Positions 9,542-24,000 of a DNA stretch of 24,000 bases are shown piece after piece. The translations under genes and the position numbers were made by a program. The notes under the pieces were generated by a model that did not search any database, was not told the DNA's origin, and saw only the letters and a list, made by a program, of their open reading frames with translations. The DNA comes from an uncultured Thermoplasmata archaeon. GTDB lineage: Archaea > Thermoplasmatota > Thermoplasmata > Thermoplasmatales > Aciduliprofundaceae. Positions within the stretch are counted from its first letter, which is position 1; each line of letters starts with the position of its first letter. The DNA lies in NCBI GenBank assembly GCA_964630095.1, contig CAZVSZ010000001.1:2982-26981 (forward strand), read 5' to 3'.

Positions 9542-9580
9542 TTTTATTTCTCCTGAGAGAGGCCCGTACCCACAGGTGAT

Positions 9581-9588
9581 AATATATA
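9581..9588 (-). promoter_or_regulatory. candidate TATA box for the 288-aa archaellin gene
   Basis: The minus strand reads ACTATATATTATC about 40-50 nt upstream of the ATG at 9541. This would give a ~15-20 nt leader containing AGGAG. Confidence 0.35.
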
Positions 9589-9590
9589 GT

Positions 9591-9610
9591 TGTTCTCATA
9601 TCTGAGAACA
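9591..9610. promoter_or_regulatory. perfect 8-4-8 palindrome TGTTCTCA-TATC-TGAGAACA abutting the candidate TATA box
   Basis: Read directly: tgttctcatatctgagaaca. The arms are exact reverse complements. It lies immediately upstream (BRE side) of the TATATATT element. Confidence 0.6.
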
Positions 9611-9675
9611 ATCAATGATACTCATTGAAATTTTAAATAAGTTTTTATGTGGGTATCCAAAAAGAAACAAATCAC

Positions 9676-9692
9676 AAAAAAATTGTAAAAAA
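9676..9692 (-). terminator. oligo-T terminator candidate after the flaC/D/E gene
   Basis: The minus strand directly after the TAA stop (9693-9695) reads TTTTTTACAATTTTTTT. Oligo-T tracts are the usual archaeal intrinsic termination signal. Confidence 0.4.
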
Positions 9693-10676
9693 TTATACCC
9701 CATGGTATTCCCATAGGGATTTCTTGAACTTTTCAATCTCCTGTTCTAGGGAATTCAGAGTATCCTTATTAATCTCAATTCCTGCTATTTTCATAATGAA
9801 TAGCAGGGATTTCAGATGGTCCTCTGCACTCAGTCTCCAGTCATCTACTTTCTTGTAAATCTTGGGTGAAGGCGGCTTTATTGTTCCCTTCGGTGTTTCA
9901 ATCTCTGCTTCAATTTCCTCTTCTGGGAAATACCTTGTTACATCCTGAACTTCACCTCTCGCATATGCCATTATCTCAGATTTCACTTCTCTGCTTATCC
10001 AGCCAATGTCCACATAGTAATCCAGTAGCAAGGTAATCTTATCTCTTTTCACTCTTTCAAACAGGAACTCAATCCACCGCATAAGCAGAACTATTGTGTA
10101 GTAATCTTTTTTAATTTGGGTAAGAATTGGTGTACCAATTTTCTCTCTTTTCTCTGGCCTTGTAGGTGGTGGTTGTGCAATGGGGAGGTGAAACTCCTCT
10201 TCCACACTCTCCTTCTCTTTTTCTCCAGATTCTATATTCATAGCATTCTCTGGGATGAGTGGTTCATCCGTGGGTAATTTGGTGGGGAACTCTGAAGATT
10301 TTTCATCCATGTTTATGAATGGATTTATTTTCTGTGAAACTACCTCGTATATATCAAGCAATCTCTTTATATTGTCCTGTGATTCTTCATTGAGTTTTCG
10401 GAGCTCTGAAATCTCATTTTCCAATGAACCTATGAGTGAATCATGTCTTTCAATCTTGGACTGTAACTCATCAATTCTCCTTGATAAATCATCTATTTTT
10501 TCTGTGAGATCGTCTATTCCTGTGCCCTTGAGAGCATCACTGAGTATGTTCTGAAAATCATTTTCGTCCACTATTGTCTCTGATACCCCCTCCTGAGGGG
10601 ACTCAGTCATCTCTGATTCTTTCGTATCTTTCTTTTTTCTCGCTTTTTTCCTTTTTTTCTTAAACAACCCTGCCAT
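9693..10676 (-). CDS. flaD: archaellum accessory protein FlaC/D/E-type fusion (Lys-rich N-terminus, coiled coil, acidic linker, FlaD/E domain)
   Basis: The track ORF begins at a GTG (10685). I prefer the ATG at 10676 (MAGLFKKKRKK), preceded by AGGAGGTGA. It has coiled-coil heptads (LTEKIDDLSRRIDELQSKIERHDSLIGSLENEISELRKLNEE) and a C-terminal Arch_fla_DE-like domain (LLMRWIEFLFERV...YYVDIGWISREVKSEIMAYARG...HLKSLLFIMKIAG). Confidence 0.75.
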   Translation of the reverse strand: MAGLFKKKRKKARKKKDTKESEMTESPQEGVSETIVDENDFQNILSDALKGTGIDDLTEKIDDLSRRIDELQSKIERHDSLIGSLENEISELRKLNEESQDNIKRLLDIYEVVSQKINPFINMDEKSSEFPTKLPTDEPLIPENAMNIESGEKEKESVEEEFHLPIAQPPPTRPEKREKIGTPILTQIKKDYYTIVLLMRWIEFLFERVKRDKITLLLDYYVDIGWISREVKSEIMAYARGEVQDVTRYFPEEEIEAEIETPKGTIKPPSPKIYKKVDDWRLSAEDHLKSLLFIMKIAGIEINKDTLNSLEQEIEKFKKSLWEYHGV

Positions 10677-10716
10677 TTTTCTCACCTCCTTTGTGTTGTC
10701 AGTGGTTCATTGTTTT

Positions 10717-10736
10717 TGCTGTACAATGCTGTACAA
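10717..10736. repeat. perfect tandem 10-bp direct repeat TGCTGTACAA x2 (two TGTACA palindromes one helical turn apart)
   Basis: Read directly: tgctgtacaatgctgtacaa. It lies between the archaellin-204 stop (10754) and the flaC/D/E ATG (10676). Confidence 0.8.
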
Positions 10737-10750
10737 AGAAAAAATAAGAG
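10735..10750 (-). terminator. oligo-T tract directly after the archaellin-204 stop codon
   Basis: The minus strand after the TAA reads CCTCTCTTATTTTTTCTTT. Partial termination after major archaellin genes is known in fla operons. The same tract could instead serve as a weak TATA element for flaC/D/E. Confidence 0.35.
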
Positions 10751-10753
10751 AGG

Positions 10754-11368
10754 TTAGTAGAGATCAACATATGTGGTTGTCAGTGTGGATGGTACCATAA
10801 ACTCCGTATAGGTTGGCACTCCATGCTTAGGTATGAGATCTAAACTCACATCTGTTTGCGGTCCAAGATTCAGTCCTGCTGTGGTGGCATTTATGAATAT
10901 CTTCACCACATCTCCAGAACTCATCACATGGTCAGTGGCCCAGTTTGAGGGAGCCATATCTCTCAAAAGGGTAGCACCAAACTCTGTTGCTCCAAGCTGG
11001 GATGCACTTGTTGCACTAGAATTGAAACTAAGTGTCACATCTGTGGTTCCATCCGTTATTTCAATGAGAACATTGTCCATATCTATTGCGGGGCTCCCAG
11101 CCACGATTCCCACTTTCATCTCTATTACCTGTATCACTGGAGTTGCGTTGGGAACATTCGTCAGGCCTCCAATATGCAATACCTTGAACCCTGTTGAGAC
11201 ATCTGCAATTGCCTCATTTCCAGTTTTCTCTGCCTGCTGCTGCAGCTGGTACGCTGTCTGTATCAGCACGGTTGCGGCAACGGCAGCCACGATAACCATG
11301 GCTATGAAGATTATCAGGGTGCCGATGCCGAACTCGCCTTTTTCCTTCTTATTCCATACCTTCTTCAT
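10754..11368 (-). CDS. flaB: archaellin (FlaB/ArlB), canonical size
   Basis: 204 aa. [46 protein letters not shown] class III signal and helix, then the archaellin beta core ([22 protein letters not shown]..., [21 protein letters not shown]). GGTGAT Shine-Dalgarno lies 5 nt before the ATG. Confidence 0.92.
11230..11347 (-). repeat. 118-nt segment 94% identical to 9406-9523
   Basis: Same manual alignment as for 9406-9523. Direct orientation, ~1.8 kb apart, flanking the flaC/D/E gene. Confidence 0.85.
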
Positions 11369-11393
11369 TTTTCATCACCTCAGGTCTCTCTTG

Positions 11394-11412
11394 GAGAGCC
11401 ATTGTGGCTCTC
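11394..11412 (-). promoter_or_regulatory. 8-bp/3-nt-loop hairpin or palindromic operator GAGAGCCA-N3-TGGCTCTC in the archaellin-204 leader
   Basis: Read directly (plus strand gagagccattgtggctctc). It lies between the TATA candidate and the SD/ATG. A near-identical element occurs at 21510-21530. Confidence 0.6.
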
Positions 11413-11468
11413 AAAATAAGTTAGATAACTGGGGTTTAAAAATATTTAGTTTCAATTCTATATAAATG

Positions 11469-11476
11469 ATTAAAAT
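11469..11476 (-). promoter_or_regulatory. candidate TATA box (TTTATATA) for the archaellin-204 gene
   Basis: The minus strand reads ATCATTTATATAGAA ~100 nt upstream of the ATG at 11368. A second A/T box (TTTTTAAA, ~11445-11452) is also possible. Either one places the hairpin within the leader. Confidence 0.35.
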
Positions 11477-11509
11477 TTTTGATTTTAGAATTTGATAATC
11501 ACATGGGAA

Positions 11510-14380
11510 TCATTTACGGTAGTAAAGATATGCAATTATTGCAACTACAGCGATAACTCCAATAACTATGTAAAGGATATTGTCCATCACAATGTTCCAA
11601 ATAGTATCCCATACACTCTTTTTAATTTCGCCAACTCTAAATTTCAAAGTTATATTTTTATTTAAATTGAATTTTGAGAAAAACATCAAGGTCAGAGAAT
11701 AAACTCCATTTCTCAGTTTATTTTTGAGCTCCATTCTTACGGTTACATTTTCTCCCGGATTTAAAATGACCACTGTCTGATTTGTGTAATTTTTACCATT
11801 GTAAGTGAATATCCAGGTGGAATTTTTTATTTGAGAAAAATGAGGTATCACAGTTATTGCATCTAAAACATTTCCAGTATTTTTAATTTGAACATCAAAG
11901 AGCACCTTCTCTTCTCCCGATATTCTTTTTACTGTCACTTGGTAATTTGGTGATGGCTTAACATCTATATTTATCGGGAGCGTGGTAAGGGTAGTATTGC
12001 CCCTAAGCACATGGAAAATTAAAGGATATGTCCCCGCCGTAATATTTAGTGGCAGGAGAAGATCAATTTCCACAGTGATATTCTCCCCTGATTTAACAAC
12101 ACCGGAAGATGGAGATATGATGGAATAATGTAGCAATGGACCAGAGACATTGAAATTATAGAAATCCATAATGTTTCCTGTATTCACAACATTTATGATA
12201 GCGGTATATTTTCCCTCACTTCCATTAAGATATGTTACTGTGGCAATGGCAGAGTGGTGAGGAGCGACCATTAGTAAAATTGAGATATTTTTTGATACAT
12301 TGCCTAACCGGGGACTAAGATGCAAATAAATAATATCCTTTGTATAAGCGGCAGTTGAATTGGGGATATATACTGTGAAATTCATATTACGCTGGGTATT
12401 TGCAGGAACTGAGACAACATCATTGTAGTTTATCAGCCAAGTTTTCGTTTCTATTATTTTTACAAGATATGTATCATTGCAATTACCTAAATTTGAAATT
12501 GTGAAATTTATAGATGCTGCTCTATTCGGGAGTGAATACACAATTGGATTATAATAAACTTGAAAATTTACAACTCTCTCCACAACTACAGTTACATTAT
12601 TCACATAATTTTTTCCAGAGGAGGAATTAACCATAAGAGTTATGTTGTAATGCCCAAAAGATAAATTCTCATACGCGTAAATTGTAATGTTGAATGTGAT
12701 TTCCTTCTGCGGTGGCAGATTTTTTATGAGAGTCTGGGGTGAAATGATAAAAAGATTCGGAGAGTAATTGAAGTGAAGGTAATATGTATCATTCCAGTTC
12801 CCATCATTAACAATACTTACACTTAAATTAGTATAATTTCCCGGACTAATTTCACATTTATTAGGGACATATACCTGAAAACTGTATTCCCTAACGAAAA
12901 CATATTCCTCTGCATAATTATTGTATTCATTGGCTTCAAACACACTATTCTGTGGATCCAGAATAAATTTAATATAATGATACCCCCCTCCCATCCTCAA
13001 GCTGAAATTGAGAATCTCCTGCGATGATAGCGATATATTTCCCTGAATAACTGTTGAGTTATCAATCATAAGGATGTAATCCACCTCCCTGCCAATATCC
13101 CAAGTGATGCCCATATTTACCGATATATTCACCGTGTTATTATTCACACTATCTATTTTTAAATATTTTACATAGAGGTCCGGAAACTTTGCAAATTTTG
13201 AGAAAATATAGGTTCCATTATCGTATTTTTCAGACCATATCACCACTAAGGAGTTGGAGTTTACTGCAATCTCCGGTTTCTCAGAACTGTTTTCGTTGAG
13301 AACTAATATTCTGTCAATTTTAACTCCAGTGCCATTATACATACCTGATTTTATTGAACCACTGGGAATGTCGTTCCATACCACAAACAACCTTCCATTT
13401 TTTTCAATAGCATTGGGAGTGATTGAGTTCACACCATCCGGAAAAGTCAGATTTCTATCATCTACAAGCGTAATTCCAGTTGTATTAAGAGAGGTGAATA
13501 TGGGTTCATAACTTTCATTTTCTCGTGAACAGGAAAATACAACATATATCCTATTATCTCCATAATCAACACTGAGCGTGCTCTTGGGAGATACAACACT
13601 AATTCTTCTTATGGGCGTAATAAAATATCCGCAACAATCAAGGCCTTTGTACATTATACTGTATCCAGGAGTGGGGGTATCATCAATCCACAGAATATGA
13701 ACATGGTTGTAATTATCAACTACAAGTTTTGGCTGGGTGGAATTGTAATGGGAGTTAGAAACCATTATTGGGGAAAAAACAGAATTGCCGTTCTGGTCAA
13801 TTTTATCGTACATAACTACCCAGTGATCATTGATAAATTCCTGCCATGCAAGATGAAGAAATCCCTGTGAATCCATACCAAAAGAGGGATTGGTACAATT
13901 ATCTCCATTATCCCGTACTGATTTCGGTGGAATTTCTATTGAAATATTTTCATTGCTGTAAAGCAAACGGGAGAAAAATATTGTCCAGTGAGTATTTAGA
14001 AATCTCTGCCATACTATAAATATTCTGGATCCACTCACTTCAATCCGTGGATTTATATCATCCCCGGAGTAGTATGTGATTCGGGAATCGTTTAGCAATT
14101 TGAAGCCCTCCTCTGTGAGCTTGGTATAATATATTTCCCAGTTACCATTTCTATAATCCTGCCACACAACATCATATGTGTTGTTTTCTCCACTTTTTAC
14201 CACGGGATTTGTGGAGTTGCCAAGCCATGTTATTCTCTTTGTGGATGACCACAAAAAGCTATCTTCAACTGCATTTTTCCCCTGAACACTATGCTCTTGC
14301 ATGTAATTTATATGGGGGTAAACTGGAAATGTTGTTATCAGTAAGGCAAGGATTATAACGCCCGCTAATACTACTCTCAT
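11510..14380 (-). CDS. large secreted, C-terminally membrane-anchored, sequon-rich surface protein (beta-propeller-like repeats, CARDB-like domain, several Ig-like repeats)
   Basis: The track ORF starts at 14479 and would overlap the upstream wHTH gene. The ATG at 14380 gives a signal-peptide-like MRVVLAGVIILALLITTFPVYP. Six W-x-D/E...W-x-I/V-aromatic repeats are present (VVWQDYRNGNWEIYYTKL, IVWQRFLNTHWTIFFSRL, LAWQEFINDHWVVMYDKI, ILWIDDTPTPGYSIMYKGL, VVWNDIPSGSIKSGMY, VIWSEKYDNGTYIFSKF). A CARDB-like end motif FEANEYNNYAEEYVFV follows. Then come ~5 repeats of the pattern ISPG..L.V.I.N.GN..DTY...F.V.I.P. The C-terminal TM is NILYIVIGVIAVVAIIAYLYYRK. I count ~42 N-x-S/T sequons by hand. Confidence 0.7.
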   Translation of the reverse strand: MRVVLAGVIILALLITTFPVYPHINYMQEHSVQGKNAVEDSFLWSSTKRITWLGNSTNPVVKSGENNTYDVVWQDYRNGNWEIYYTKLTEEGFKLLNDSRITYYSGDDINPRIEVSGSRIFIVWQRFLNTHWTIFFSRLLYSNENISIEIPPKSVRDNGDNCTNPSFGMDSQGFLHLAWQEFINDHWVVMYDKIDQNGNSVFSPIMVSNSHYNSTQPKLVVDNYNHVHILWIDDTPTPGYSIMYKGLDCCGYFITPIRRISVVSPKSTLSVDYGDNRIYVVFSCSRENESYEPIFTSLNTTGITLVDDRNLTFPDGVNSITPNAIEKNGRLFVVWNDIPSGSIKSGMYNGTGVKIDRILVLNENSSEKPEIAVNSNSLVVIWSEKYDNGTYIFSKFAKFPDLYVKYLKIDSVNNNTVNISVNMGITWDIGREVDYILMIDNSTVIQGNISLSSQEILNFSLRMGGGYHYIKFILDPQNSVFEANEYNNYAEEYVFVREYSFQVYVPNKCEISPGNYTNLSVSIVNDGNWNDTYYLHFNYSPNLFIISPQTLIKNLPPQKEITFNITIYAYENLSFGHYNITLMVNSSSGKNYVNNVTVVVERVVNFQVYYNPIVYSLPNRAASINFTISNLGNCNDTYLVKIIETKTWLINYNDVVSVPANTQRNMNFTVYIPNSTAAYTKDIIYLHLSPRLGNVSKNISILLMVAPHHSAIATVTYLNGSEGKYTAIINVVNTGNIMDFYNFNVSGPLLHYSIISPSSGVVKSGENITVEIDLLLPLNITAGTYPLIFHVLRGNTTLTTLPINIDVKPSPNYQVTVKRISGEEKVLFDVQIKNTGNVLDAITVIPHFSQIKNSTWIFTYNGKNYTNQTVVILNPGENVTVRMELKNKLRNGVYSLTLMFFSKFNLNKNITLKFRVGEIKKSVWDTIWNIVMDNILYIVIGVIAVVAIIAYLYYRK

Positions 14381-14438
14381 AATTTTTCCTGTTTTTTCAC
14401 TTCTATTTATTACTTTTTTTGTGATTATCAAAGGAGAA

Positions 14439-14756
14439 TTACAGAATTGTGGATTTCTTTTCAAGGGTATCATCCCCATTTTTCAGTATCACATGCATGG
14501 TATTTTCTTCAAAATTGAGTATTGCCCTGAAGTTTTCCATGTTAGATATGTACTTAACTCTCTTACCCTCCTTTTCCTCAGATAATAGTCCCTTTCCCAC
14601 AAGTGACTTCACGCGTCGGTAACACATAGTAACCGGTATATTGTATTCTCTGCTGAGTTCCCTTATTCCCTTCGGCTTTTCAGATGTTCCCATCAGGATT
14701 TGAAGCGTATATCTTTCCATTATTATTGACATCACTTCCTTTGCATTCATTTCCAT
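14439..14756 (-). CDS. small winged-helix (wHTH) transcriptional regulator, paralogue A
   Basis: The track start is a TTG at 14798. I prefer the ATG at 14756 (MEMNAKEV...), ~25-30 nt downstream of a TTTATAATTAAATA A/T box. The HTH core YTLQILMGTSEKPKGIRELSREYNIPVTMCYRRVKSLVGKGLL, a wing and a beta tail align with the divergent neighbour at 14919-15278. Confidence 0.7.
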   Translation of the reverse strand: MEMNAKEVMSIIMERYTLQILMGTSEKPKGIRELSREYNIPVTMCYRRVKSLVGKGLLSEEKEGKRVKYISNMENFRAILNFEENTMHVILKNGDDTLEKKSTIL

Positions 14757-14918
14757 AAGTTGGAATTGACAGCAAGGATTATTAAATTTTCGTAACAAAT
14801 TTATAATTAAATATTGATTAATTACTATCAGGGCTCAGAATCACCCAATATTACCTTGTGAGAATATATCAAATAATTATCTGTATGGAAAATGAGGACG
14901 AAAATTATTTAAGTTAAA

Positions 14919-15278
14919 ATGCCCATAAATACCACGGGGATTCAAATGGATAAAAATGCATTGGGTCTGGTATTGATGGACGATTACAATCTAAAAATCC
15001 TCGCAGCCACAGCATTGAGACCAATGAGTGTTAGAGAATTAGCCTATAAATTTGATATTCCACTGGCGAGTGCTTACAGAAAAATAAAAGAACTGGAAAG
15101 TATGGAATTAATAAAAGTGGAAGATACAAGATTGACACCGGATGGCAAGAGATACAAACTTTACAGGTCACAGGTTGAAAACTTTGAAGTTACATATCAT
15201 AGAGACAAACTGAAAATAAAATTGCACATAAAGTGGAAGGAACCTGAGATCATTGAAAAGAATATCCTCACCATATAA
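14919..15278 (+). CDS. small winged-helix (wHTH) transcriptional regulator, paralogue B
   Basis: YNLKILAATALRPMSVRELAYKFDIPLASAYRKIKELESMELI...DGKRYKLY is an ArsR/TrmB-like wHTH, collinear with paralogue A. An alternative start at 14946 (MDKNAL) is possible, ~30 nt after TTATTTAA. Confidence 0.7.
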   Translation: MPINTTGIQMDKNALGLVLMDDYNLKILAATALRPMSVRELAYKFDIPLASAYRKIKELESMELIKVEDTRLTPDGKRYKLYRSQVENFEVTYHRDKLKIKLHIKWKEPEIIEKNILTI

Positions 15279-15302
15279 ATTTTTATAATCCCCTGCATGT
15301 TT

Positions 15303-16967
15303 TTAGAAAGCAAGCACCTTTCCAATGAGCCAGTTTGTTATATAGGAGGTGACTATTCCAATCCATACAAGCATTGAAAAATGCAAATAAATACTGTGTT
15401 TATGAGAACCGCTGACAATTTTTATCATCATTGAGGAGATTATTGCGTGTATAACTATTAAACTCAAAAACACAACATTTGCCGTTTGAATCGGAAATTT
15501 CGCCGCAAGTAATGGTATTTTTATATACTGCTGGAGATTCACAGGGTAGTACTTAATCATATGGGCCATCATTTTCATAAGATTCAGGGTTGTGTAAAGA
15601 GCAAATGCCATGCCCACCATAAGACCATAAAGTATGCCAGTTAGATTTGTTGCTGATTGATATCTCTTCTTCCTCAATCCCATCATTCTTATATATGCAT
15701 CACTTATTATTTTTGAAATTTTCCTTGGATTCCCACCCATCTCTATACCAGTGACGAACATATCTGTGAACTTGGAAATTAGATTGCTCCCTGTTTCGCC
15801 TGCAAAGAAATGCCATGCCTTCTTCTTATCTATTCTTGTAAGCAATCTTTTGTATAGACGATCAATATACTCTGTGAGTTTACCAAAATCATGTTTTCTC
15901 AATCTTTCCATGGCAGTCACATCACTTCCCTTTGCTTCAATATAACTGCCTACCGCCCTAATAAAAGCATCGTAGTTTCTATCACAGTTTATTAAATTAT
16001 TCTCGGCCGTATGTATTATATATCCTGGATAAAACAATGGAAGTATGGAGAGGGCAATCACTATCCCCAGATCAAGCCCAAGTGAGTAGACGACTATGAA
16101 AATAAGAAAAACGGATAAATACACAAATGGAAGACCCTTTAAAAGTTTGATTTCGTAGGGAGATCTCACATCCTTTCTGTTATGCCATATTTCATCCTCA
16201 GGTAACTTAACTTTTATGGCATAGACCATTATACCCTCCACAAAAAGAAATGCCAAGAGGGTTAGATAAAGAAATATTCTGGTATCTGTGGCTACAAACA
16301 TTGGGAGAATGGCAGCAAACACCGCAAAGAACAGCATGGAGATTATCATCGCCACAAATGTTTCCTTGTATACATCCATCTGTGATAATGAGGATTCATA
16401 TTTTATGGCATATGTCTCCACCACCACAGTTCTCTCCTTATCAAGAAATACCTCAAAATCCTCCCCTGCATCTGCACTATGTGCCAATCTATCCAGAAAA
16501 TCTGCAAGTTCAATGCTTGGAGAACGCTTGGCCACAATTCTAACTGCATCTGGTAAACTCATATTCCAGTATTCCATTAAATTGTATATCTTTTCAATTT
16601 CTTCACTCAATGCACCGTATTCCTTCACCTCAGACAGTATTCTAAATATTTCCTTTCTGGGAAGATGTGTGGATGCCAAGACAGCCATTCTCGTAATAAA
16701 AAGATGCATATATTTTTCAATCTCTATTTTTCTTCTTTCACCCCTCACCAATGGGAAAAGTAGTAAGAATAATATTCCAAATAGAGGTATCATATAAAGA
16801 ACAATATTCCACGGGAACTCTGACATGGATGGAAATACCGAGATGAGATAGTATGTGAGAATAATACTGAGAGTTATAACAGGTATCACATAGAAAAGGA
16901 TATACTTTCTCCAAGGAATATCAAACGAATGGTAAAGTCTCACTATTTTTTCTCTCATTGTAGCCAT
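15303..16967 (-). CDS. flaJ: archaellum membrane platform protein FlaJ (ArlJ), T2SS-F-like
   Basis: 554-aa polytopic membrane protein with two cytoplasmic helical domains separated by TM blocks. It starts 6 nt downstream of flaI, as in canonical fla operons. Confidence 0.88.
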   Translation of the reverse strand: MATMREKIVRLYHSFDIPWRKYILFYVIPVITLSIILTYYLISVFPSMSEFPWNIVLYMIPLFGILFLLLFPLVRGERRKIEIEKYMHLFITRMAVLASTHLPRKEIFRILSEVKEYGALSEEIEKIYNLMEYWNMSLPDAVRIVAKRSPSIELADFLDRLAHSADAGEDFEVFLDKERTVVVETYAIKYESSLSQMDVYKETFVAMIISMLFFAVFAAILPMFVATDTRIFLYLTLLAFLFVEGIMVYAIKVKLPEDEIWHNRKDVRSPYEIKLLKGLPFVYLSVFLIFIVVYSLGLDLGIVIALSILPLFYPGYIIHTAENNLINCDRNYDAFIRAVGSYIEAKGSDVTAMERLRKHDFGKLTEYIDRLYKRLLTRIDKKKAWHFFAGETGSNLISKFTDMFVTGIEMGGNPRKISKIISDAYIRMMGLRKKRYQSATNLTGILYGLMVGMAFALYTTLNLMKMMAHMIKYYPVNLQQYIKIPLLAAKFPIQTANVVFLSLIVIHAIISSMMIKIVSGSHKHSIYLHFSMLVWIGIVTSYITNWLIGKVLAF

Positions 16968-16973
16968 GGGGCA

Positions 16974-18611
16974 TCACACCGTAAATGGCAATTTCTCCAC
17001 TCCAAATTTCTGAAAATCCTGTATGATTTTAACCACATCCCTATATCGGAAGATATTGTGCTCTATCATTTTCCTTATAATCTTCGCCCTGAGAAACAGG
17101 TCATTGTACACTTTTCTTGGATCCGCATATCCTAAAAGTGGTGCTATTTTTTCCTCAAGAATGTAGGAGTTGTTGAGACCTCTGAAAATATGCTCATCTC
17201 TGAGGGGATCCCACACAAATACCGCCTTTGTCATAACACCACCGAGTTCCTCTGAATATCCTATTATTTCCTCAACAGAAAGAACCCTTCTCAAGCTCTT
17301 TCCCTTGAGATACACTGCTTGCTGAAATACGCCAATATTCAAATTATCCATGAAGGTAACGGGCACATTTATTGGAGGTGAACTCAATCTCTGAATCATC
17401 CTTTTTATAGAGGATGCATGGAATGTGGACATAACAGGGTGACCTGTCTGCATTGCCTGAAATGCCACATTCCCCTCTGCACCTCTTATCTCGCCAACAA
17501 TTATATAATTTGGTCTTGACCTCAACGCTGCCTTTAAAAGATCAAACATTTCAACTCTTGATTCTTTGGGACCTGATTCACGGGTAAGCAACCTCTGCCA
17601 TATCTCGTGGGGGACATGTACCTCGGGCGTGTCTTCTGCTGTGAAGACCTTGTAATTGTATCTTATGAAGGGAATTATTGAATTTAATGTTGTGGTTTTT
17701 CCACTTGCAGTTTCTCCAGCCACAAATATGCTCTTCCCATACTCTATGGTCATCCATAAGTATGCGGCAATTTCGGGCGAGAAAGTACCCCACTTCACCA
17801 GCTGTGTTACGCTGAGAGGCTCTGCAGCAAATTTTCTTATTGTAAATGACCCTCCTCTGATACTCACATCATCCGCATATATGATATTTATTCTTGAACC
17901 ATCGGGAAGTGCGCCATCCACAATAGGTCTTCCAGTGCTAACCGGTCTTCCCATTCTTTCGCTCATACCTCTGAGATACGAATCCAGTTCATCATAACTT
18001 CTGAACTGAACATTGGTTTCCAGCGTCTCAAATACTTTGTGAATTAAATGAATAGGATCAATACCTATGGTGTGGATATCCTCTATGTAAGGATCTCTGA
18101 GAAGAGGTTCCAGAGGACCACTCTCAATAATGTCTCTCTTTAAATAATACTCAATCTTATCATATTCCTCCGTTGTAACGGGCACTTTTACTTCCTTAAA
18201 AAGGGAAAAGAACGATTTTTCCTCTTCAAATGGCACAAATTCATCAGTAATCACCGTTGATTTTTTAAGCAATCTCTCTATCTGTCTCTCAAACTCTTCC
18301 TTTGTCTTGTGAGGGGGTTCATATCCTGCCTTTATGAAAATCAATTCCCTTATTTTTAGGTATTTCTTCAGTTCTTCATCGTTAAGCTGGGGCTGTATCA
18401 CAACATACTTTCTCTGAGCCATTCTGCCATATATATGGATGAATATGGGGTCACCAACAGGATATATAAGATTAACCCATTCCAGATCCCTCATATCTCT
18501 TGAAAGTTGTTCGTAAAACTCAGGCTTTTCCTTTAATTCTTTCTTGACTTTTTCAATATAGACCCCAAGATGAGGATTTCTTTTTATTGCAATATCCATT
18601 TTCATTGCCAT
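16974..18611 (-). CDS. flaI: archaellum assembly/motor ATPase FlaI (ArlI)
   Basis: 545 aa. Walker A GETASGKTT, Walker B/Asp box NYIIVGEIRGAE and His box GHPVMSTFHA are typical of the secretion ATPase superfamily (T2SS-E/VirB11-like). The N-terminal domain and gene context are FlaI-specific. Confidence 0.95.
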   Translation of the reverse strand: MAMKMDIAIKRNPHLGVYIEKVKKELKEKPEFYEQLSRDMRDLEWVNLIYPVGDPIFIHIYGRMAQRKYVVIQPQLNDEELKKYLKIRELIFIKAGYEPPHKTKEEFERQIERLLKKSTVITDEFVPFEEEKSFFSLFKEVKVPVTTEEYDKIEYYLKRDIIESGPLEPLLRDPYIEDIHTIGIDPIHLIHKVFETLETNVQFRSYDELDSYLRGMSERMGRPVSTGRPIVDGALPDGSRINIIYADDVSIRGGSFTIRKFAAEPLSVTQLVKWGTFSPEIAAYLWMTIEYGKSIFVAGETASGKTTTLNSIIPFIRYNYKVFTAEDTPEVHVPHEIWQRLLTRESGPKESRVEMFDLLKAALRSRPNYIIVGEIRGAEGNVAFQAMQTGHPVMSTFHASSIKRMIQRLSSPPINVPVTFMDNLNIGVFQQAVYLKGKSLRRVLSVEEIIGYSEELGGVMTKAVFVWDPLRDEHIFRGLNNSYILEEKIAPLLGYADPRKVYNDLFLRAKIIRKMIEHNIFRYRDVVKIIQDFQKFGVEKLPFTV

Positions 18612-18623
18612 AGCACCTCACCC

Positions 18624-19313
18624 CTACGAGATTGCCATTATCTCCAGAATTATTCCTGTTCCAGATTCAACCCTAAACACTATGGAATTCTCAACCCTTG
18701 CAGGAGCATTGGAGTATCTTTTTATGAATGCTACACGATTTACCATTCCACCAATTCTGTTTATTTTCGTCTCCATATAAACATGTGCTGCCGCCTTGAA
18801 AGGAGCCATCACTTCTTCTGGGATTGCATTTTTTTCCAATGTGAGTATTATTGTTCTTTCAAGTGCCAGAAGTCTTTTAAAAAAGGAGAGAAGTTGAACA
18901 GATCTTTCCTCCACCTTTAAACTTGCCTTTACCAGTGAGGATAATGTATCAATAATTATCACATCAGTTCTAAACAGAGATGGAGAGGTGATAAGTTTCC
19001 CCAAGAAATCCTTTCTGTTTCCCATTCTTCCTATGATTGGGTACACAGGCACAAAAACCAGCCTGTTTCTAAGAAGAAAGCTTGCTATGGGATAATTCAG
19101 AGAGTACATCTGATTTATAAAATCTCTCACCGTCAACTCTGTGGAGATTATGGTAACTGTATGACCATTGAGAAGTAATCCATATGCAAATCTCTGCACC
19201 AATGCGCTTTTTCCGCTTCCATTTTCACCTTCCAAAATCACAAGGGAACCATGAGGAAAACCCCCCGCCAATTTTGAATGAAGTTCATCCCTTTCTATTT
19301 TTATTCTGTACAT
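18624..19313 (-). CDS. flaH: archaellum RecA/KaiC-like ATP-binding protein FlaH (ArlH)
   Basis: 229 aa. LAGGFPHGSLVILEGENGSGKS Walker A and VIIIDTLS Walker B-like motifs. It lies between flaG and flaI. Confidence 0.85.
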   Translation of the reverse strand: MYRIKIERDELHSKLAGGFPHGSLVILEGENGSGKSALVQRFAYGLLLNGHTVTIISTELTVRDFINQMYSLNYPIASFLLRNRLVFVPVYPIIGRMGNRKDFLGKLITSPSLFRTDVIIIDTLSSLVKASLKVEERSVQLLSFFKRLLALERTIILTLEKNAIPEEVMAPFKAAAHVYMETKINRIGGMVNRVAFIKRYSNAPARVENSIVFRVESGTGIILEIMAIS

Positions 19314-19314
19314 T

Positions 19315-19746
19315 TTAACTCACCGTGAAATTGAAATTCTGCGATAAACCATCTTCAAGAACAACCTTCACCACATGAGTTCCAGAGGCAAGGTCAATGT
19401 CCACAACGAGAGTTATTGTGACTCCCGGATTCCATGTAATATTCGTCCCGTCTACAACGGTGAAATTTGCCGATATACCATCAACGAGAACTGTTATGTG
19501 CTGCACGCTCAATGCTATTTTACCCGTGTTTTTCAGATAGAGAATTACAGGATTATTAGTCATCCTCTCTGGGTCATTTATTATTTTGAAATCCTCCGAT
19601 AATTGCTTGGATATTATATCTCCCCTATCCTCAATTCCATTGGATATGTTCATTATTGCCACCACAGCCACTCCAACAAAGCTCGCCGCAATTATTATGG
19701 ACGCAATAAAGAATATTATATGGGTTGCACTTGTGCTCATACCCAT
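19315..19746 (-). CDS. flaG: archaellum stator-complex protein FlaG (ArlG)
   Basis: 143 aa. N-terminal archaellin-like TM helix MGMSTSATHIIFFIASIIIAASFVGVAVV, then a beta-sandwich-like domain (PVILYLKNTGKIALSVQHITVLVDG). Position between flaF and flaH, 1-nt gap to flaH. Confidence 0.7.
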   Translation of the reverse strand: MGMSTSATHIIFFIASIIIAASFVGVAVVAIMNISNGIEDRGDIISKQLSEDFKIINDPERMTNNPVILYLKNTGKIALSVQHITVLVDGISANFTVVDGTNITWNPGVTITLVVDIDLASGTHVVKVVLEDGLSQNFNFTVS

Positions 19747-19757
19747 TTCACATCACC

Positions 19758-20822
19758 TCACAAAAATCCATAAACTTCATTTCCATAATCATCCACAATC
19801 TTAATTCTATAACCGAAATTCATGGCCCATACCTCGTTCCCCGAAACATATATTTTCCCATAGATATCCAAGTTTTTCACCTTTTCCTCAAGCGTTATTT
19901 CCCTCACATAACTTCCATCTCTGAATATCAGAATCTGATTTCCGTTGTTAAGTATTATCATATAATCTTTACCATTCTCAAAATCCGATGAAATTTTTGT
20001 GGCATTGGTGATGTATGGGGATGTGATTTGATACAGATAAGCTCCCGTGTAATTGAATACCTTTACTGCGTTGCCATCCAAGACATACACATTCCTTCCC
20101 ACGGCTACATCCTTTCCATTATTCATGGATTGCGATGCAACAATATTCCCGGAAAATGTGTATATTACAAATGCACTTTTATTCACAGCATATACATAAT
20201 TGTAATTTGCATCCATGGCAATGAAATCATTATTTCCTACAATACTTCCAATTTTAGTTCCATTAAGTGTGTACTCAATTATACCCGTAGCATTTAGAAC
20301 AAATACTCTAGAGGAAACACTGCAATCAACTCCATCATTTATGTTAGAATACCAAGAAAGCGGGCCCTCATAGGCGTAAGAGTAAATCCCATCTGAATTG
20401 AGGATATATATCTTATCCTGTTCAGCGGTGGCAATCGCATCCATTCCCACTTTAAACTGTATACCATTATTCCCACCAATTTCGTAAGTTGTGTTTATAA
20501 AAAATTTTTTGAATTCACCTGGATACCAGTAATCCCCCGAGGTATTGAACCCTCGCATTGTTCCATTAACCATTATACTTACCTTGCTCAAATCTATGGT
20601 ATTTGGCCCCTCATTTTCAGCATAAATTTCAATTCTTGTTGTGTTGTAAACTATCCTTGTGATTGATATGCTATTTTTCTGATGATTCATTATATTTATT
20701 CTGTTTCTGAAACCATTCTGAGATTCATCATAACTGTAAATAACGCTATTGAGCAGAATACCCATCATGAATACGGATGCTGTGAATAACACACCATATG
20801 CTGCAATAGTGCTCAATCCCAT
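19758..20822 (-). CDS. flaF: FlaF (ArlF)-like protein fused to a ~230-aa C-terminal six-repeat beta-propeller-like domain
   Basis: The N-terminal ~125 aa are FlaF-like (TM helix MGLSTIAAYGVLFTASVFMMGILL; IEIYAENEGPNTIDLSKVSIMVNG). The remainder consists of six ~38-aa repeats with an NHL/YVTN-like pattern (KIYILNSDGIYSYAYEG, RVFVLNATGIIEYTLNG, YVYAVNKSAFVIYTFSG, NVYVLDGNAVKVFNYTG, YMIILNNGNQILIFRDG, KIYVSGNEVWAMNFGY). It starts 1 nt after the archaellin-216 stop. Confidence 0.65.
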   Translation of the reverse strand: MGLSTIAAYGVLFTASVFMMGILLNSVIYSYDESQNGFRNRINIMNHQKNSISITRIVYNTTRIEIYAENEGPNTIDLSKVSIMVNGTMRGFNTSGDYWYPGEFKKFFINTTYEIGGNNGIQFKVGMDAIATAEQDKIYILNSDGIYSYAYEGPLSWYSNINDGVDCSVSSRVFVLNATGIIEYTLNGTKIGSIVGNNDFIAMDANYNYVYAVNKSAFVIYTFSGNIVASQSMNNGKDVAVGRNVYVLDGNAVKVFNYTGAYLYQITSPYITNATKISSDFENGKDYMIILNNGNQILIFRDGSYVREITLEEKVKNLDIYGKIYVSGNEVWAMNFGYRIKIVDDYGNEVYGFL

Positions 20823-20823
20823 T

Positions 20824-21474
20824 TTAACTCATCTCCACATACCTCGTTGTGTAGGGAGATGGAGTCATAAGATTCTCAAGGGTAGGTACACCATGCTTTG
20901 GAATAATTTTCAGCAACAAATAACTCTGGGGAACGAGATTCAATCCGCATGCAGTGGCATTGAAAAAGAACTCCACAATATCCCCCTGCGTGATTGTTTT
21001 CTCATTCCATGTGAGCGGGCTCATGTCCCTGATTATCTTGGCTCCAAACTGTCCATTTCCGAGATGGGGATGACTCACACTTGGATCATATGTGGCTGTA
21101 GAATTAAAAACCAGATTCGTGGATATATTGCCATCATTCACTTCAATAATAATATCATTCACATTTATTGCCGGACTGCCTGCTATTGGCGAGACCTCCA
21201 CTGTTATCCAGTCAATTTTATTTCTATACGGTTCTCTAATTCCCCATGTGGTGTTGTATCTATAGCCACCAAGGGAAATTATCTTTAATCCCATAGACAC
21301 ATCTTGGATAGCTGAATTGCTTGTGCTCTCGGCCTGCTGCTGTAGACGATAGGATAACTGAATCAACACTTCGGCAGTTACTGCTGCCACAACAATCATT
21401 GCAATGAAAATTATCAGCGAACCTATGCCGAATTCTCCCTTATCTTTTTTTATTGTATTCATCCTATTCATCAC
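20824..21474 (-). CDS. flaB: archaellin (FlaB/ArlB), first gene of the flaB-F-G-H-I-J operon
   Basis: KDKG/EFGIGSLIIFIAMIVVAAVTAEVLIQLSYRLQQQA and the archaellin core ([43 protein letters not shown]). The track start is a GTG at 21474. The ATG at 21471 or at 21462 (GGTGAT 7 nt upstream) is the more likely true start. Confidence 0.9.
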   Translation of the reverse strand: MMNRMNTIKKDKGEFGIGSLIIFIAMIVVAAVTAEVLIQLSYRLQQQAESTSNSAIQDVSMGLKIISLGGYRYNTTWGIREPYRNKIDWITVEVSPIAGSPAINVNDIIIEVNDGNISTNLVFNSTATYDPSVSHPHLGNGQFGAKIIRDMSPLTWNEKTITQGDIVEFFFNATACGLNLVPQSYLLLKIIPKHGVPTLENLMTPSPYTTRYVEMS

Positions 21475-21509
21475 CTCTGATTATCACCTCCTGGAGAGGT
21501 TATTGGGAA

Positions 21510-21530
21510 GGAGAGCCACTATGGCTCTCC
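21510..21530 (-). promoter_or_regulatory. 9-bp/3-nt-loop hairpin or palindromic operator GGAGAGCCA-N3-TGGCTCTCC in the archaellin-216 leader
   Basis: Read directly (ggagagccactatggctctcc). Same core as 11394-11412. Confidence 0.6.
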
Positions 21531-21535
21531 TGAGA

Positions 21536-21579
21536 GAGGCCCGAGGTTTTAGTTATCACCTGCGGGTATACGGGACCTC
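21536..21579 (-). promoter_or_regulatory. second, imperfect leader stem (GAGGCCCG ... CGGGaCCTC, 8 bp with one bulge, 27-nt loop)
   Basis: Read directly. The loop contains a GGTGATAA Shine-Dalgarno-like sequence on the RNA strand. Confidence 0.35.
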
Positions 21580-21604
21580 CCTCAAAAATAAAAATGAATA
21601 CCAC

Positions 21605-21635
21605 TTTTAAAAATTTTTTCTTTGAGATTTATAAA
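21605..21635 (-). promoter_or_regulatory. candidate promoter region (ATTTTTAAAA and TTTATAAA boxes) for archaellin-216/flaF-J
   Basis: These are the only strong A/T octamers within 170 nt upstream of the start. Either one implies an unusually long (~110-135 nt) leader. Confidence 0.3.
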
Positions 21636-21872
21636 TTGTTAAACAAAAAAGATTATTCTCTCTGATTTTAAATATTGAAAATCAAAAGAATAAAACAGAA
21701 ATTTTTAAGATTTTATCATTTCCTAGAATATCTGACTCTACTGATTTAGTTCAATCTGTTTCTTGAGATTTTCATCGTATATCTTTATCCATGTTTTCTT
21801 TATTTTCCCCATAAAATCATATAATTTTCTAAGTGTATTTAAATGATTTCAAGTGAAAATCTTGAGATATAA

Positions 21873-22241
21873 TCATCTGTGATAATGTCTCTTGAGAAAT
21901 TTGGGGAAAGATATAAATCTCGGTTTATAATGCACCCTCTTTATTGCACCTAACCCTGCTGCTTGGATATTTTCCCTCTCCGGAACTATGCTCTCACCAG
22001 AGAGCATATCAATGCTCTTCTTTCTCTTCCCATCTATTTTTCCCTTCTTGTATGCCTTTTTTATTTCTTCAACAATTTTTAATCTCTTTGCCTCTTCAAT
22101 TATCTTTTCCATCTCCTTTTTTACCCATCCAACAGATTCATAGTGTTTGTAGTAACCCACCTCAAATCCCAGTTTATATGCTCTTTCCACAAGCGTTTTT
22201 CTTTCTACCTTCTGTGGTTTTTTTCTGAACATATTTTTCAC
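21873..22241 (-). CDS. hypothetical small, very basic Lys/Arg-rich protein, no TM segment
   Basis: 122-aa ORF starting 1 nt after the giant archaellin stop, so probably co-transcribed. Helical, charged (KKEMEKIIEEAKRLKIVEEIKKAYKKGKIDGKRKK). I recognise no family. Confidence 0.5.
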   Translation of the reverse strand: MKNMFRKKPQKVERKTLVERAYKLGFEVGYYKHYESVGWVKKEMEKIIEEAKRLKIVEEIKKAYKKGKIDGKRKKSIDMLSGESIVPERENIQAAGLGAIKRVHYKPRFISFPKFLKRHYHR

Positions 22242-22242: not shown

Positions 22243-23859
22243 TCAGTATATCTCTACATACCTATTTAACATTATTGACGGTATATTTATGATTTTGTAT
22301 ATGGGTACCCCACTCCTCGGTAAGATTTTCATTACCAACTTTGTTTGAGGTGTCAATGTTAATCCAATTGCCCTCGCATTTATATACATTTTTATAATGG
22401 TACCCTCGTCAAGAATATAACTTTCCATGAATTCCCCCGTAGGGTCATTTATAACCTCCACACCGTAATGGGTTGAATCTGCCGCTTTTATCCCAAAACC
22501 ACTGGAATTAAGTTTCAGAGATGCATCTATCTTTCCATCCGTGAGCTCCACAATTACCGTATTGAAATCTATGGGCTGAGAGCCAGGACCCAGTGAGAGT
22601 TTAATCTGTAGAATCTGTATGGAAGACTGGGGAACAACTGGCTCACCGTACAAACTTGCATTGTTCACTGGGATCACTGCATAGTAATACATCTGATATG
22701 GCATGTAATGATAATCATCAAAACTCGTATTTGTGGTGAACCCGTACGGTTTTCTGTTGAACATTTCAGGAGTGGCAAGATTTATATAATTCAAACTCCT
22801 GTAAATATAATATCCCTTAATCCCGCTTTCATTATCAACCACTTTCTTCCATTCAAGATGAAGAGAATACTGCTCCGTTATGCCTGTAAGGCCCACAACA
22901 CTGGAGGGAGGTGTTGTATCCACAGTTTCAACACTTATATGGTCCGAAGAAGAGGAATAAATAGCAGAATTGCCGGCCCTGTCATATCCAACCACTGCAT
23001 AGTACCATATTCCCGGTTTTGAAGGGTAATCTATATAGTTTCTCACATTGCCATTCACAGTAGCTATCAGTGTTGAAGAGTTTATATTAGAGGATGTTAT
23101 GGTCTCATTTGAACGGTAAATTTTTTGATATGCGATACCACTTCCAGAATCATCTGCTGTCCAGGAAATCATCACCCCATAACCTGCCGTATCTATACTA
23201 TTCACATTACCGCTTGGTGGGGTTGTATCGGGAGTACCTGTGCCCGTGGATACCGTCTGATTTACAGCCATATAAAGTGCGGGATTTCCAGCAAAATCAT
23301 ATCCTATAATTGCGTAACCGTATATCTTATTGGACTCAACAGTGTAATCAATAAATTCACGATGATCAGTGAAATTGGAGGTTTGTATGGCAATCAATTT
23401 CCCTGTGGATTTTACAAAGTTCATATCCTGCAACACATAGGATAGAGAGGTATAATCCCCCTCCACCCTGTAAATTTCCTCCTTTGCCATCCCTGTTCCA
23501 GTATCCACCGCAGAGTTCCAAACTATTTTCACCGAGAGGGGGTTGGCACTGTTCACAGTAACATTCAAAATCAGGCCATTTTGGGGAGGGTCCCTATCTA
23601 TCTGTATGGGTGCCTTTACCCCAATCACAGATGGGTCCTTTCCGTCAATATCCCTATCACCTAAGATATTGAGTATGTTTATTGAACTCGTTATCTGGCT
23701 CACTGCATCTGAAGCAACCTTTTCTCCCTGCTCTCTCAGGGTTATACCCACATATATGATTAGGGATGATGCAATTGCTGCCACGATTATAATAGCAATG
23801 AAGAGTATCAGCGTTGCTATTCCAATATCTCCTTTTTCCTTCCCATATACTTTTTTCAT
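22243..23859 (-). CDS. giant archaellin-family protein with three FN3-like modules inserted between the N-terminal helix and the C-terminal archaellin core
   Basis: Class III signal and helix MKKVYGKEKG/DIGIATLILFIAIIIVAAIASSLIIYV. The C-terminal core is collinear with the other archaellins (IKLSLGPGSQPIDFNTVIVELTDG..., LTLTPQTKLVMKILPRSGVPI). aa ~88-412 form three modules, each with a PP-containing linker (DRDPPQ, DTTPPSG, DTTPPSS), a W strand (VKIVWNSAVDTGTG, VMISWTADDSGSG, LHLEWKKVVDNESG), Y-x-(I/V)-YR, and a Y-x-V-x-x-x-D-x-AGN-type last strand. Confidence 0.8.
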   Translation of the reverse strand: MKKVYGKEKGDIGIATLILFIAIIIVAAIASSLIIYVGITLREQGEKVASDAVSQITSSINILNILGDRDIDGKDPSVIGVKAPIQIDRDPPQNGLILNVTVNSANPLSVKIVWNSAVDTGTGMAKEEIYRVEGDYTSLSYVLQDMNFVKSTGKLIAIQTSNFTDHREFIDYTVESNKIYGYAIIGYDFAGNPALYMAVNQTVSTGTGTPDTTPPSGNVNSIDTAGYGVMISWTADDSGSGIAYQKIYRSNETITSSNINSSTLIATVNGNVRNYIDYPSKPGIWYYAVVGYDRAGNSAIYSSSSDHISVETVDTTPPSSVVGLTGITEQYSLHLEWKKVVDNESGIKGYYIYRSLNYINLATPEMFNRKPYGFTTNTSFDDYHYMPYQMYYYAVIPVNNASLYGEPVVPQSSIQILQIKLSLGPGSQPIDFNTVIVELTDGKIDASLKLNSSGFGIKAADSTHYGVEVINDPTGEFMESYILDEGTIIKMYINARAIGLTLTPQTKLVMKILPRSGVPIYKIINIPSIMLNRYVEIY

Positions 23860-24000
23860 AATTCACCACTTTATCTGTGTCTATTTAAATAATTAGATGT
23901 GATTACCAATGCATAAAATCACGGGGGAAACAAAGTTTAATATATCTCCCATTCATAATTACAACCAATGGAAAAACTCATTGCTCAGGCGAAGGTATAT

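Follow-up and report, generated by a model that had tools for sequence, protein, structure and literature searches.

An uncultured relative of Aciduliprofundum (lineage DHVE2; Thermoplasmata, Aciduliprofundaceae) encodes an archaellin paralog of 538 amino acids (aa) that carries three fibronectin type III (FN3)-like modules within its globular domain. Its gene lies on the minus strand of a 24,000-nucleotide (nt) stretch of contig CAZVSZ010000001.1, hereafter the window. The protein, which we call the tri-FN3 archaellin, retains the N-terminal and the C-terminal parts of an archaellin, is conserved in this form over deep divergence, and is linked to archaellum (arl) genes in several lineages. 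With slightly better than even confidence, we regard it as a genuine archaellin paralog that is polymerized by the ArlHIJ machinery and bears the FN3 triad as an outer layer. It is probably not the only building block of the filament but an accessory subunit or one made under certain conditions. The gene and its parts are as follows.

22243-23859, minus strand: tri-FN3 archaellin paralog gene, whole open reading frame (ORF) including the stop codon; ATG start, 538 aa (ORF list, PF01917)
23830-23859, minus strand: class III signal peptide, aa 1-10 (MKKVYGKEKG); predicted cleavage after G10, from alignment to mature archaellins
23689-23829, minus strand: N-terminal hydrophobic helix, the filament-core element, aa 11-57; helix at aa 11-56 in the AlphaFold2 model, most conserved region
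23599-23688, minus strand: first strands of the globular archaellin core, aa 58-87 (strands 60-67 and 78-82; AlphaFold2); aligns to the three canonical archaellins of the window
23242-23598, minus strand: FN3-like module 1, aa 88-206, with an extra helical excursion at aa 136-152 (repeat model, Foldseek; predicted local distance difference test score, pLDDT, 93-96)
22924-23241, minus strand: FN3-like module 2, aa 207-312 (repeat model, PF24893/DUF7743; a neogenin FN3 pair aligns to aa 207-357)
22627-22923, minus strand: FN3-like module 3, aa 313-411 (repeat model; weak PF00041 match at aa 325-357; pLDDT 83-94)
22243-22626, minus strand: C-terminal rest of the archaellin beta core, aa 412-538 and stop codon (residues 71-210 of 5o4u; Foldseek matches 7ofq_B and 7ofq_A)

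Archaellin core and FN3-like insert

The 538-aa ORF with its ATG start is present exactly as the initial annotation had it; the interval 22624-23658 singled out there covers the insert (aa 68-412). Database protein P0001, encoded on a 28-kb metagenomic scaffold, has the same sequence (100% identity). The Pfam archaellin model PF01917, proposed at the outset as a check, reaches 62.8 bits (gathering score 29.5), its match being split into two stretches, the N-terminal one at aa 10-75; all 26 aligned homologs match this model as well. FlaB0 of P. furiosus (5o4u) aligns to aa 8-71 and, with its residues 71-210, to aa 414-536, and to nothing in between. Hence, both a family model and a solved structure match the two halves in which an archaellin N-terminus with its helix and a C-terminal beta core had been recognized. 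The NCBIfam model 'flagellin' (PRK08541) yields 75.6 bits, below its full-length cutoff of 210, because the match is split.

We predicted the structure with AlphaFold2 from the alignment of 26 homologs (mean pLDDT 81, predicted template modeling score 0.60). For the core, a Foldseek search with the model retrieved the M. villosus archaellins 7ofq_B and 7ofq_A, with E = 8.5e-8 over 150 aligned columns for 7ofq_B and a template modeling (TM) score of 0.49-0.50 normalized to the target. The pLDDT of the core is 60-78, lower than that of the insert, as expected of a monomer removed from its filament. After deletion of the insert (aa 1-90 joined to 403-538), the core is 32% identical to the 216-aa archaellin of the window, ArlB216, and it stands at 32% to the co-resident archaellins, which are 49-52% identical among themselves.

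The N-terminus reads MKKVYGKEKG followed by DIGIATLILFIAIIIVAAIA, with KG/DIGIATLILFIA around the predicted cut (slash) and a hydrophobic helix thereafter. Alignment to the mature archaellins of P. furiosus and M. villosus places the cut two residues ahead of the motif G-I-(G/A)-T-L-I, and we predict cleavage after Gly10. Gly at position -1, Lys at -2, and Gly at +3 fit class III processing, as had been assumed for this protein. No class III peptidase gene was found in the window.

The insert is built of three FN3-like repeats, on which pairwise BLAST, AlphaFold2, and Foldseek agree with the initial annotation. The modules match each other in BLAST with E values of 1.4e-13 (R1/R2), 8e-8 (R2/R3), and 3e-6 (R1/R3). 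A hidden Markov model (HMM) of the repeat finds domains at aa 88-205 (E = 1e-32), 211-310 (2e-38), and 313-415 (2.5e-30); it was built from the repeats of the 26 homologs, those of this protein included, and is not an independent test. The AlphaFold2 model has three all-beta sandwich domains of 6-7 strands each, with pLDDT above 90 over aa ~90-410. In the search of this model against PDB, solved tandem FN3 structures rank highest, namely contactin FN1-FN3, LAR FN1-4, and the titin FnIII tandem (probability 1.00, E from 5e-10 to 1e-8), and the 25 best matches are mostly FN3-domain arrays, with E down to 4.7e-10. The global TM scores to these arrays are low, because the inter-domain angles differ.

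Family models gave a more mixed result. The FN3 model PF00041, which the annotation had proposed as a check, stays below threshold on this protein (15.8 bits vs 25), but it matches 9 of the 26 orthologs (E<=0.01; best 1.8e-6), and precomputed matches to it exist for the homologs P0028 and P0029. The FN3-clan-like family PF24893/DUF7743 passes on module 2 (28.4 bits, gathering score 27) and matches 11 of the 26. The profile of the whole family matches neogenin FN3 pairs in PDB (E = 3.6e-8) and, in a library of 1.84 billion proteins, giant surface proteins with many FN3 modules, of which there are hundreds (1,000-6,000 aa, up to 29 modules). The modules are divergent members of the FN3 fold. The signatures named for them are in place: each module has a DxxPP linker (DRDPP, DTTPP, and DTTPP), a tryptophan (W114, W233, and W337), and a Y-R pair (Y130-R131, Y248-R249, and Y350...R354), the last two features being invariant across the 26 aligned sequences. 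The motif Y-x-V...D-x-AGN is clear twice (YAIIGYDFAGN and YAVVGYDRAGN), while its third copy is degenerate in this protein (YAVIPVNNASL). These features agree with core residues of the FN3 domain, namely the tryptophan of strand B, the tyrosine corner, and the motif Y-x-V/I...(A)GN of prokaryotic FN3. The repeat HMM had no match in the 989-aa CARDB-like protein, the 354-aa ArlF-like protein, or the 288-aa archaellin encoded in the window, and we see no sign of local domain shuffling there.

The insert is large, as annotated, although its size of ~345 aa is better given as ~325-345 extra residues: it comprises ~325 aa (aa 88-411) with core strands on both sides. Its position has to be revised. 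It had been placed at the junction of the helix and the core, but alignment of the insert-deleted core to the window archaellins of 216, 204, and 288 aa locates it farther on, behind core strand 1 (aa 60-67) and a short strand 2 (aa 78-82). The 288-aa paralog has an unrelated insertion of ~85 aa at the identical point, which means that this loop tolerates insertions and is a permissive site. The FN3 cassette is tied to the core by short linkers of about 8 and 6 residues. The termini of an FN3 domain sit at opposite poles; given the short linkers at both ends, the three domains would have to fold back, probably into a closed triangle or horseshoe. By a rough volume estimate, ~36 kDa of extra mass per 5.5-Å rise leads to an outer radius of ~9 nm, which suggests that a homopolymer is sterically possible at a diameter of about 18-25 nm.

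Conservation, putative promoter and genomic setting

Full-length homologs with 57-73% identity are present in A. boonei T469, in Aciduliprofundum sp. MAR08-339, and in about 15 species-level DHVE2 genomes, which are metagenome-assembled genomes (MAGs). The ortholog from A. boonei T469, ABOONEI_32, is annotated as 'hypothetical protein', and that from MAR08-339 as 'archaeal flagellin'. A version of 572-589 aa with 29-35% identity occurs in 13 other Thermoplasmata genomes (the 573-aa clade), and versions of 582-745 aa, all annotated as hypothetical, occur in further Thermoplasmatota MAGs. Three modules were detected in every intact homolog, and the length varies by insertions within and between the modules. 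The exception is a 450-aa variant from a DHVE2 MAG (locus L018, 10001-11353), in which module 1 is truncated to ~35 residues; either a natural deletion or a faulty assembly could account for this. We also considered a variable number of modules, as tblastn matches spanned 2.2-2.4 kb, and rejected it: these spans were joined matches to neighboring archaellin genes, and the intact ORFs have three modules. A further relative, P0148 (419 aa), combines an unrelated basic N-terminal half with the last FN3 module and the archaellin core and lacks the archaellin helix; a faulty gene call or assembly probably joined these parts.

Among 22 DHVE2-type orthologs, the mean pairwise identity is 92% in the helix, 76% in the core, and ~60% in each FN3 module. 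Such a gradient is expected of a buried polymerization core with an exposed outer layer. Sequons N-x-S/T number nine in this protein and 9-12 in the DHVE2 orthologs. The sequon at N99 is kept in 24 of 26 sequences and that at N451 in 22 of 26, and the N451-S-S sequon is common to the tri-FN3 protein and the three canonical paralogs of the window.

In the window, the tri-FN3 gene is followed by a gene for a 119-aa companion protein, a spacer of ~400 nt, and the genes arlB-F-G-H-I-J. The elements around the gene are listed below.

23899-23922, minus strand: imperfect palindrome GTGATTTTAT-N5-GGTAATCAC, a candidate regulator-binding site; kept in the window and 17 DHVE2 loci
23882-23895, minus strand: box TAATTATTTAAATA resembling a TFB-recognition element (BRE) and TATA box, a putative promoter; kept in 18 of 18 aligned upstream regions
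21873-22232, minus strand: companion gene for a 119-aa basic protein, starting 10 nt past the archaellin stop codon (source-contig gene call)
21463-21872, minus strand: AT-rich spacer of ~400 nt between the two-gene unit and arlB216; contains T-tracts, a leader hairpin, and a TATA-like box (from the sequence)
15303-21462, minus strand: arlB (212-216 aa), arlF-like (354 aa), arlG, arlH, arlI, and arlJ, the presumed assembly and motor machinery (Pfam, NCBIfam, source-contig gene calls)

According to the gene calls, the tri-FN3 gene is indeed the first gene of the locus on this contig. Its description as separately transcribed is right with respect to the downstream arlB operon, which lies beyond the AT-rich spacer and has its own TATA-like box, but does not extend to the companion gene. 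Since the latter starts 10 nt past the stop codon with a GGTG ribosome-binding motif of its own, the tri-FN3 gene is probably not monocistronic.

The center of the TATA-like box lies ~26 nt ahead of the ATG, so that the leader would be very short or absent. This assignment leans on the geometry of archaeal promoters. The whole upstream block, with the consensus GTGATTTTAT-N5/6-TGATAATCAC abutting TAATT(A/C)TTTAAATA at about 26 nt from the ATG, is found in 18 of 18 loci (window positions 23882-23922, and loci L001, L003, and L005-L019), while the spacer and the flanking genes differ. We interpret it as a promoter with an adjacent candidate regulator-binding site. Conservation of the palindrome together with the TATA box supports independent, regulated transcription of the two-gene unit.

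A related half-site, GTGATTATCA, is located upstream of arlB204, the gene for the 204-aa archaellin (11493-11502). The leaders of arlB216 and arlB204 also share a hairpin, GAGAGCCA-NNN-TGGCTCTC, with identical 8-bp stems (21511-21529 and 11394-11412), 25-40 nt ahead of the start codons; two matches were obtained in none of 100 shuffles. The tri-FN3 gene lacks this hairpin in its upstream region, nor did the hairpin turn up in the other loci retrieved; Rfam gave no match to it. A scan of the window with Rfam matched no family, and a scan for sigma-70 promoters and intrinsic terminators gave counts equal to the shuffled expectation, these models being uninformative for an archaeon.

The companion follows the large archaellin in 17 of 17 full-length DHVE2 loci. 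It is a basic protein (isoelectric point 10.1) with two A-x3-G-x3-G motifs and, by inspection, no signal sequence. AlphaFold2 predicts helices at residues 6-27, 29-33, 35-51, and 54-78 and a disordered tail that ends in the conserved P-x-F-L-K/R-K/R. Searches of Pfam, NCBIfam, PHROG, and PDB sequences returned no match of weight (FliH_bacil 14.9 bits vs 148.9; best PDB E = 0.044), and a Foldseek search with the model returned no PDB match with E<1. Kinship to ArlD/E, with which it has the motif Y-x-x-VGW(V/I) in common, is not supported: hhalign gave a probability of 4% against the ArlD/E of the window. We regard the companion as a putative cytoplasmic accessory or regulatory factor. No analog was seen in the 573-aa clade, where the gap of ~450 nt after the gene holds only non-conserved, spurious ORFs. 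In Ca. Mnemosynella (L055), a companion homolog overlaps the end of a KaiC-like ATPase gene, divergent from the arl operon, and this locus lacks a tri-FN3 archaellin.

Outside DHVE2, the gene also keeps company with archaellum genes. In 13 loci of the 573-aa clade it resides within the arl operon, with the order ArlB, ArlD/E, tri-FN3, ArlB, ArlCDE, ArlF, ArlG, ArlH, ArlI, ArlI2, ArlJ. A 745-aa relative adjoins ArlD/E, four archaellins, and chemotaxis (che) genes, and a 602-aa relative is encoded directly 5' of an archaellin and ArlCDE. In total, the window and four other Thermoplasmatota lineages show linkage to arl or che genes. One copy of the gene was seen at each place examined, together with one to four canonical archaellins, and it always coexists with canonical archaellins of ~205-216 aa.

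Possible roles of the FN3-bearing subunit

If the protein is an archaellum subunit, as we favor, the preprotein would enter the membrane through its N-terminal hydrophobic helix, a class III peptidase of the ArlK/PibD type would remove the leader after Gly10, and the ectodomain would be N-glycosylated. ArlH, ArlI, and ArlJ, encoded just downstream, would extract the subunit and stack it into the archaellum via the helix and the archaellin core. The cassette of three FN3-type beta-sandwiches, sitting in a surface loop that follows the first two strands of the globular domain, would be forced back by the short linkers into a closed, roughly triangular or horseshoe-like outer lobe. This lobe would add a protein layer beyond the ~10-nm core, making the filament thicker wherever the subunit is present, and could serve surface protection, stiffness, or adhesion. 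We prefer an accessory or conditional role because the gene is single-copy at the places examined, coexists with canonical archaellins, and has its own putative promoter with an operator-like palindrome.

Several observations weigh against this reading. Linkage to the archaellum machinery is not universal: in A. boonei, MAR08-339, and most DHVE2 MAGs, there are no arl genes within 8-10 kb of the archaellin-companion pair. Those pairs sit among housekeeping genes, often near a KaiC-like ATPase, so that the arrangement in the window is exceptional within DHVE2. In most orthologs, the -2 residue of the predicted cleavage site is Glu (KEEG/D, DEEA/D), as opposed to Lys or Arg in canonical archaellins, and they may be processed in an atypical manner. 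In its second half (SSLIIYVGITLREQGEKVA), the helix is unlike that of the co-resident archaellins, which may limit co-polymerization with them. The outward-facing position of the insertion site and the fit to the filament lattice are presumed on the basis of the rough volume estimate. Finally, cleavage and polymerization are themselves proposals, as are glycosylation, conditional expression, and the shape of the outer lobe.

It is less likely, but a serious alternative, that the protein is a low-copy, specialized subunit confined to one place of the filament. This could be the distal tip, where it would act as a priming subunit or an adhesin, or else the curved 'hook' or collar next to the cell, where the filament passes through the surface layer (S-layer). 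Growth of archaella takes place at the base, which carries the earliest subunits to the tip. The presence of one copy beside one to four canonical archaellins would suit such a part, as would the separate, regulated-looking promoter and the helix distinct from those of the co-resident archaellins, and the constancy of the architecture down to about 30% sequence identity is more in keeping with a fixed structural role than with an ecoparalog. Moreover, the hook of Methanococcus is formed by a minor archaellin, according to a review, and 'very elegant hooks' have been reported for A. boonei. However, the Methanococcus hook archaellin is of normal size, no sequence feature marks a terminal position, and the complete archaellin core would allow incorporation anywhere in the lattice; in addition, the sole solved precedent of large archaellins concerns major subunits (PMC13357602). 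A bolder form of this idea, which we consider unlikely, makes the protein a dedicated low-copy element of the Thermoplasmatota archaellum, be it a tip priming subunit or adhesin or the thick curved 'hook' or collar of A. boonei, with the FN3 triad as a ring-like outer assembly and the companion and the palindrome timing its production. If true, this would be a component not yet identified in any archaellum.

The absence of arl genes around the pair in most DHVE2 genomes, where it lies near a KaiC-like ATPase and a zinc-ribbon protein, is also what one would expect if the protein functioned outside the swimming filament, in a separate non-rotating adhesive fiber assembled by the archaellum or another type-IV machinery, or as a membrane-anchored surface protein. 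In the anchored form, similar to ArlF and ArlG, the archaellin-like helix would be only an anchor, and the FN3 domains would be spacers to the S-layer. The atypical -2 residue of the cleavage site points the same way, FN3 domains of this subtype otherwise occur in giant surface proteins with many repeats (1,000-6,000 aa), and ArlF and ArlG, too, match the archaellin Pfam model. Still, we think a function of this kind quite unlikely. The best matches of the protein are true archaellins over both of its halves, while the ArlG model reaches 17.8 bits at the N-terminus alone; dedicated arlF and arlG genes are already present; and the gene lies within or beside arl/che clusters in four other Thermoplasmatota lineages. 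The 92% identity of the helix indicates extreme purifying selection, which would be needless for a mere anchor. As the contig is metagenomic and the relative P0148 looks chimeric, one could also suspect an annotation or assembly artifact, such as a chimera of an archaellin and an FN3 surface-protein gene, or a decaying gene. We assign next to no probability to this explanation, against which the conservation data are effectively decisive: two cultured strains with complete genomes and more than 30 independent assemblies share the full-length architecture, with intact reading frames throughout and conservation consistent with purifying selection.

Neighboring genes and comparison with known filaments

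The archaellum cluster of the window (8324-21474) has an unusual, split order: arlB-arlF-G-H-I-J, two HTH/TrmB regulators (helix-turn-helix proteins; 14439-14798, minus strand, and 14919-15278, plus strand), a gene for a 989-aa protein, and arlB204-arlCDE(330 aa)-arlB288-arlDE(113 aa). The organization of the flagellar genes in A. boonei was reportedly assigned to a distinct type by Reysenbach and Flores (2008). The 288-aa archaellin (8675-9541, minus strand) carries its ~85-aa insertion (DVKYTETIGTGDGSTRVF...TITAIYGSGY) in the same loop as the FN3 cassette. The insertion is not FN3-like by the repeat HMM and has weak matches to Big_3_5 (E = 0.016) and to phrog_6128, a phage family (E = 8e-6). 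In the DHVE2 loci L037, L040, L041, L043, L044, L046, and L048, there are likewise ORFs of ~289-293 aa whose N-terminus is of the archaellin type.

The ArlF-like protein (19758-20822, minus strand; 354 aa) matches the 137-position NCBIfam model of ArlF with aa 1-111, and its C-terminal extension of ~240 aa has no Pfam match. ArlF is likewise long, 396-419 aa, in the 573-aa clade, where two tandem paralogs of ArlI (T2SSE ATPase) are encoded between arlH and arlJ (L004, L020-L028, L031, and L032; e.g., L020 16396-19905). The 989-aa protein (11510-14479, minus strand), encoded between the two halves of the arl cluster, has weak CARDB, NPCBM_assoc, and Ig-like matches. In other Thermoplasmatota, its homologs are found beside arl genes (L035 5445-8270; L086 5583-8651) and after arlJ (L026, L027, and L032). 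It may be the counterpart of the multi-Ig S-layer-like protein of the Thermococcales and Methanococcales arl loci (bioRxiv 10.64898/2026.04.22.720090). In many DHVE2 genomes, the archaellin-companion pair is adjoined by a KaiC-like ATPase (235-252 aa, weakly similar to ArlH), at times together with the zinc-ribbon protein; such sites are L001 12163-13536, L003 10148-11527, and the upstream regions in L014, L015, L018, L019, and L030. The site in Ca. Mnemosynella is L055 7083-8155.

The closest parallel is provided by ArlA2 and ArlB of Har. marismortui (PDB 9v95, 9v96), archaellins of ~450 aa whose inserted domain D2 forms an outer sheath and doubles the filament diameter to ~20 nm (Nat Commun 2026, PMC13357602). 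Both these proteins and the tri-FN3 archaellin are oversized relative to the ~200-aa norm, keep the helix (D0) and the globular domain (D1), and have the extra domain inserted within D1, with two chain crossings. On the other hand, the Haloarcula D2 is one bi-lobal beta-sandwich without a convincing structural homolog (PMC13357602), whereas here we find three discrete FN3 domains, and chains 9v95_A and 9v96_A align only to aa ~3-90 of the tri-FN3 protein, i.e., to its N-terminal ~85 residues. The Haloarcula archaellins lack N-glycosylation sequons, in contrast to the nine seen here. They are also proven major subunits from Halobacteria, while the protein from Thermoplasmatota is a putative subunit. 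Various archaea have large archaellins with outer domains, usually beside canonical ones; their role is described as unknown, and conditional expression has been proposed (PMC13357602). Insertions between archaellin core strands were noted earlier (PMC6500986).

With canonical archaellins, such as FlaB0 (5o4u), ArlB1/B2 of M. villosus (7ofq), and ArlB of O. meridianum (8rh5), the tri-FN3 protein shares the class III leader, the G-I-G/A-T-L-I-x-F-I-A helix, the beta-sandwich core, and the genomic linkage to arlF-J. It differs from them by ~325 extra residues after the first core strands; the variation in size among the solved structures is far smaller, as exemplified by the 28-residue spike of O. 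meridianum ArlB. Tandem FN3 arrays (contactin, LAR, titin, and prokaryotic giant proteins) have the same fold and the same W, Y-R, and Y-x-V...D-x-A-G-N signatures. These arrays are linear and open-ended, unlike the exactly three modules here, which appear to be closed into a loop of another domain. Bacterial flagellins with D2/D3 domains or sheath-forming dimers, according to PMC13357602 and PMC11532411, likewise combine a conserved polymerizing core with a divergent surface domain in the middle of the chain. They belong to an unrelated family and use type III export and growth at the tip, as opposed to type-IV-pilus-like growth at the base, so that the similarity is an analogy only.

Among the papers searched, none links 'archaellin' with 'fibronectin type III' or 'FN3', and the predicted large archaellins in the supplement of PMC13357602 could include this family. 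A large archaellin with an inserted outer domain has been known since 2026; new are the presumably closed FN3 triad, its strict conservation in Thermoplasmatota, and the two-gene module with a conserved candidate operator in DHVE2.

Until 2026, when Haloarcula yielded the first structures of sheathed archaella, archaella were taken to be uniform ~10-nm filaments of ~200-aa subunits. The tri-FN3 family would be a second, independent solution to archaellins with outer domains, conserved over deep divergence. It raises the questions of why there are exactly three modules and how the filaments of thermoacidophiles protect or functionalize their surface. The archaellin loop, which accommodates between 85 and more than 500 inserted residues, may be useful for display engineering on archaella. 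As the family is present in the cultured A. boonei T469, electron microscopy and filament proteomics can address its possible roles as a sheath, hook, tip, or adhesin.

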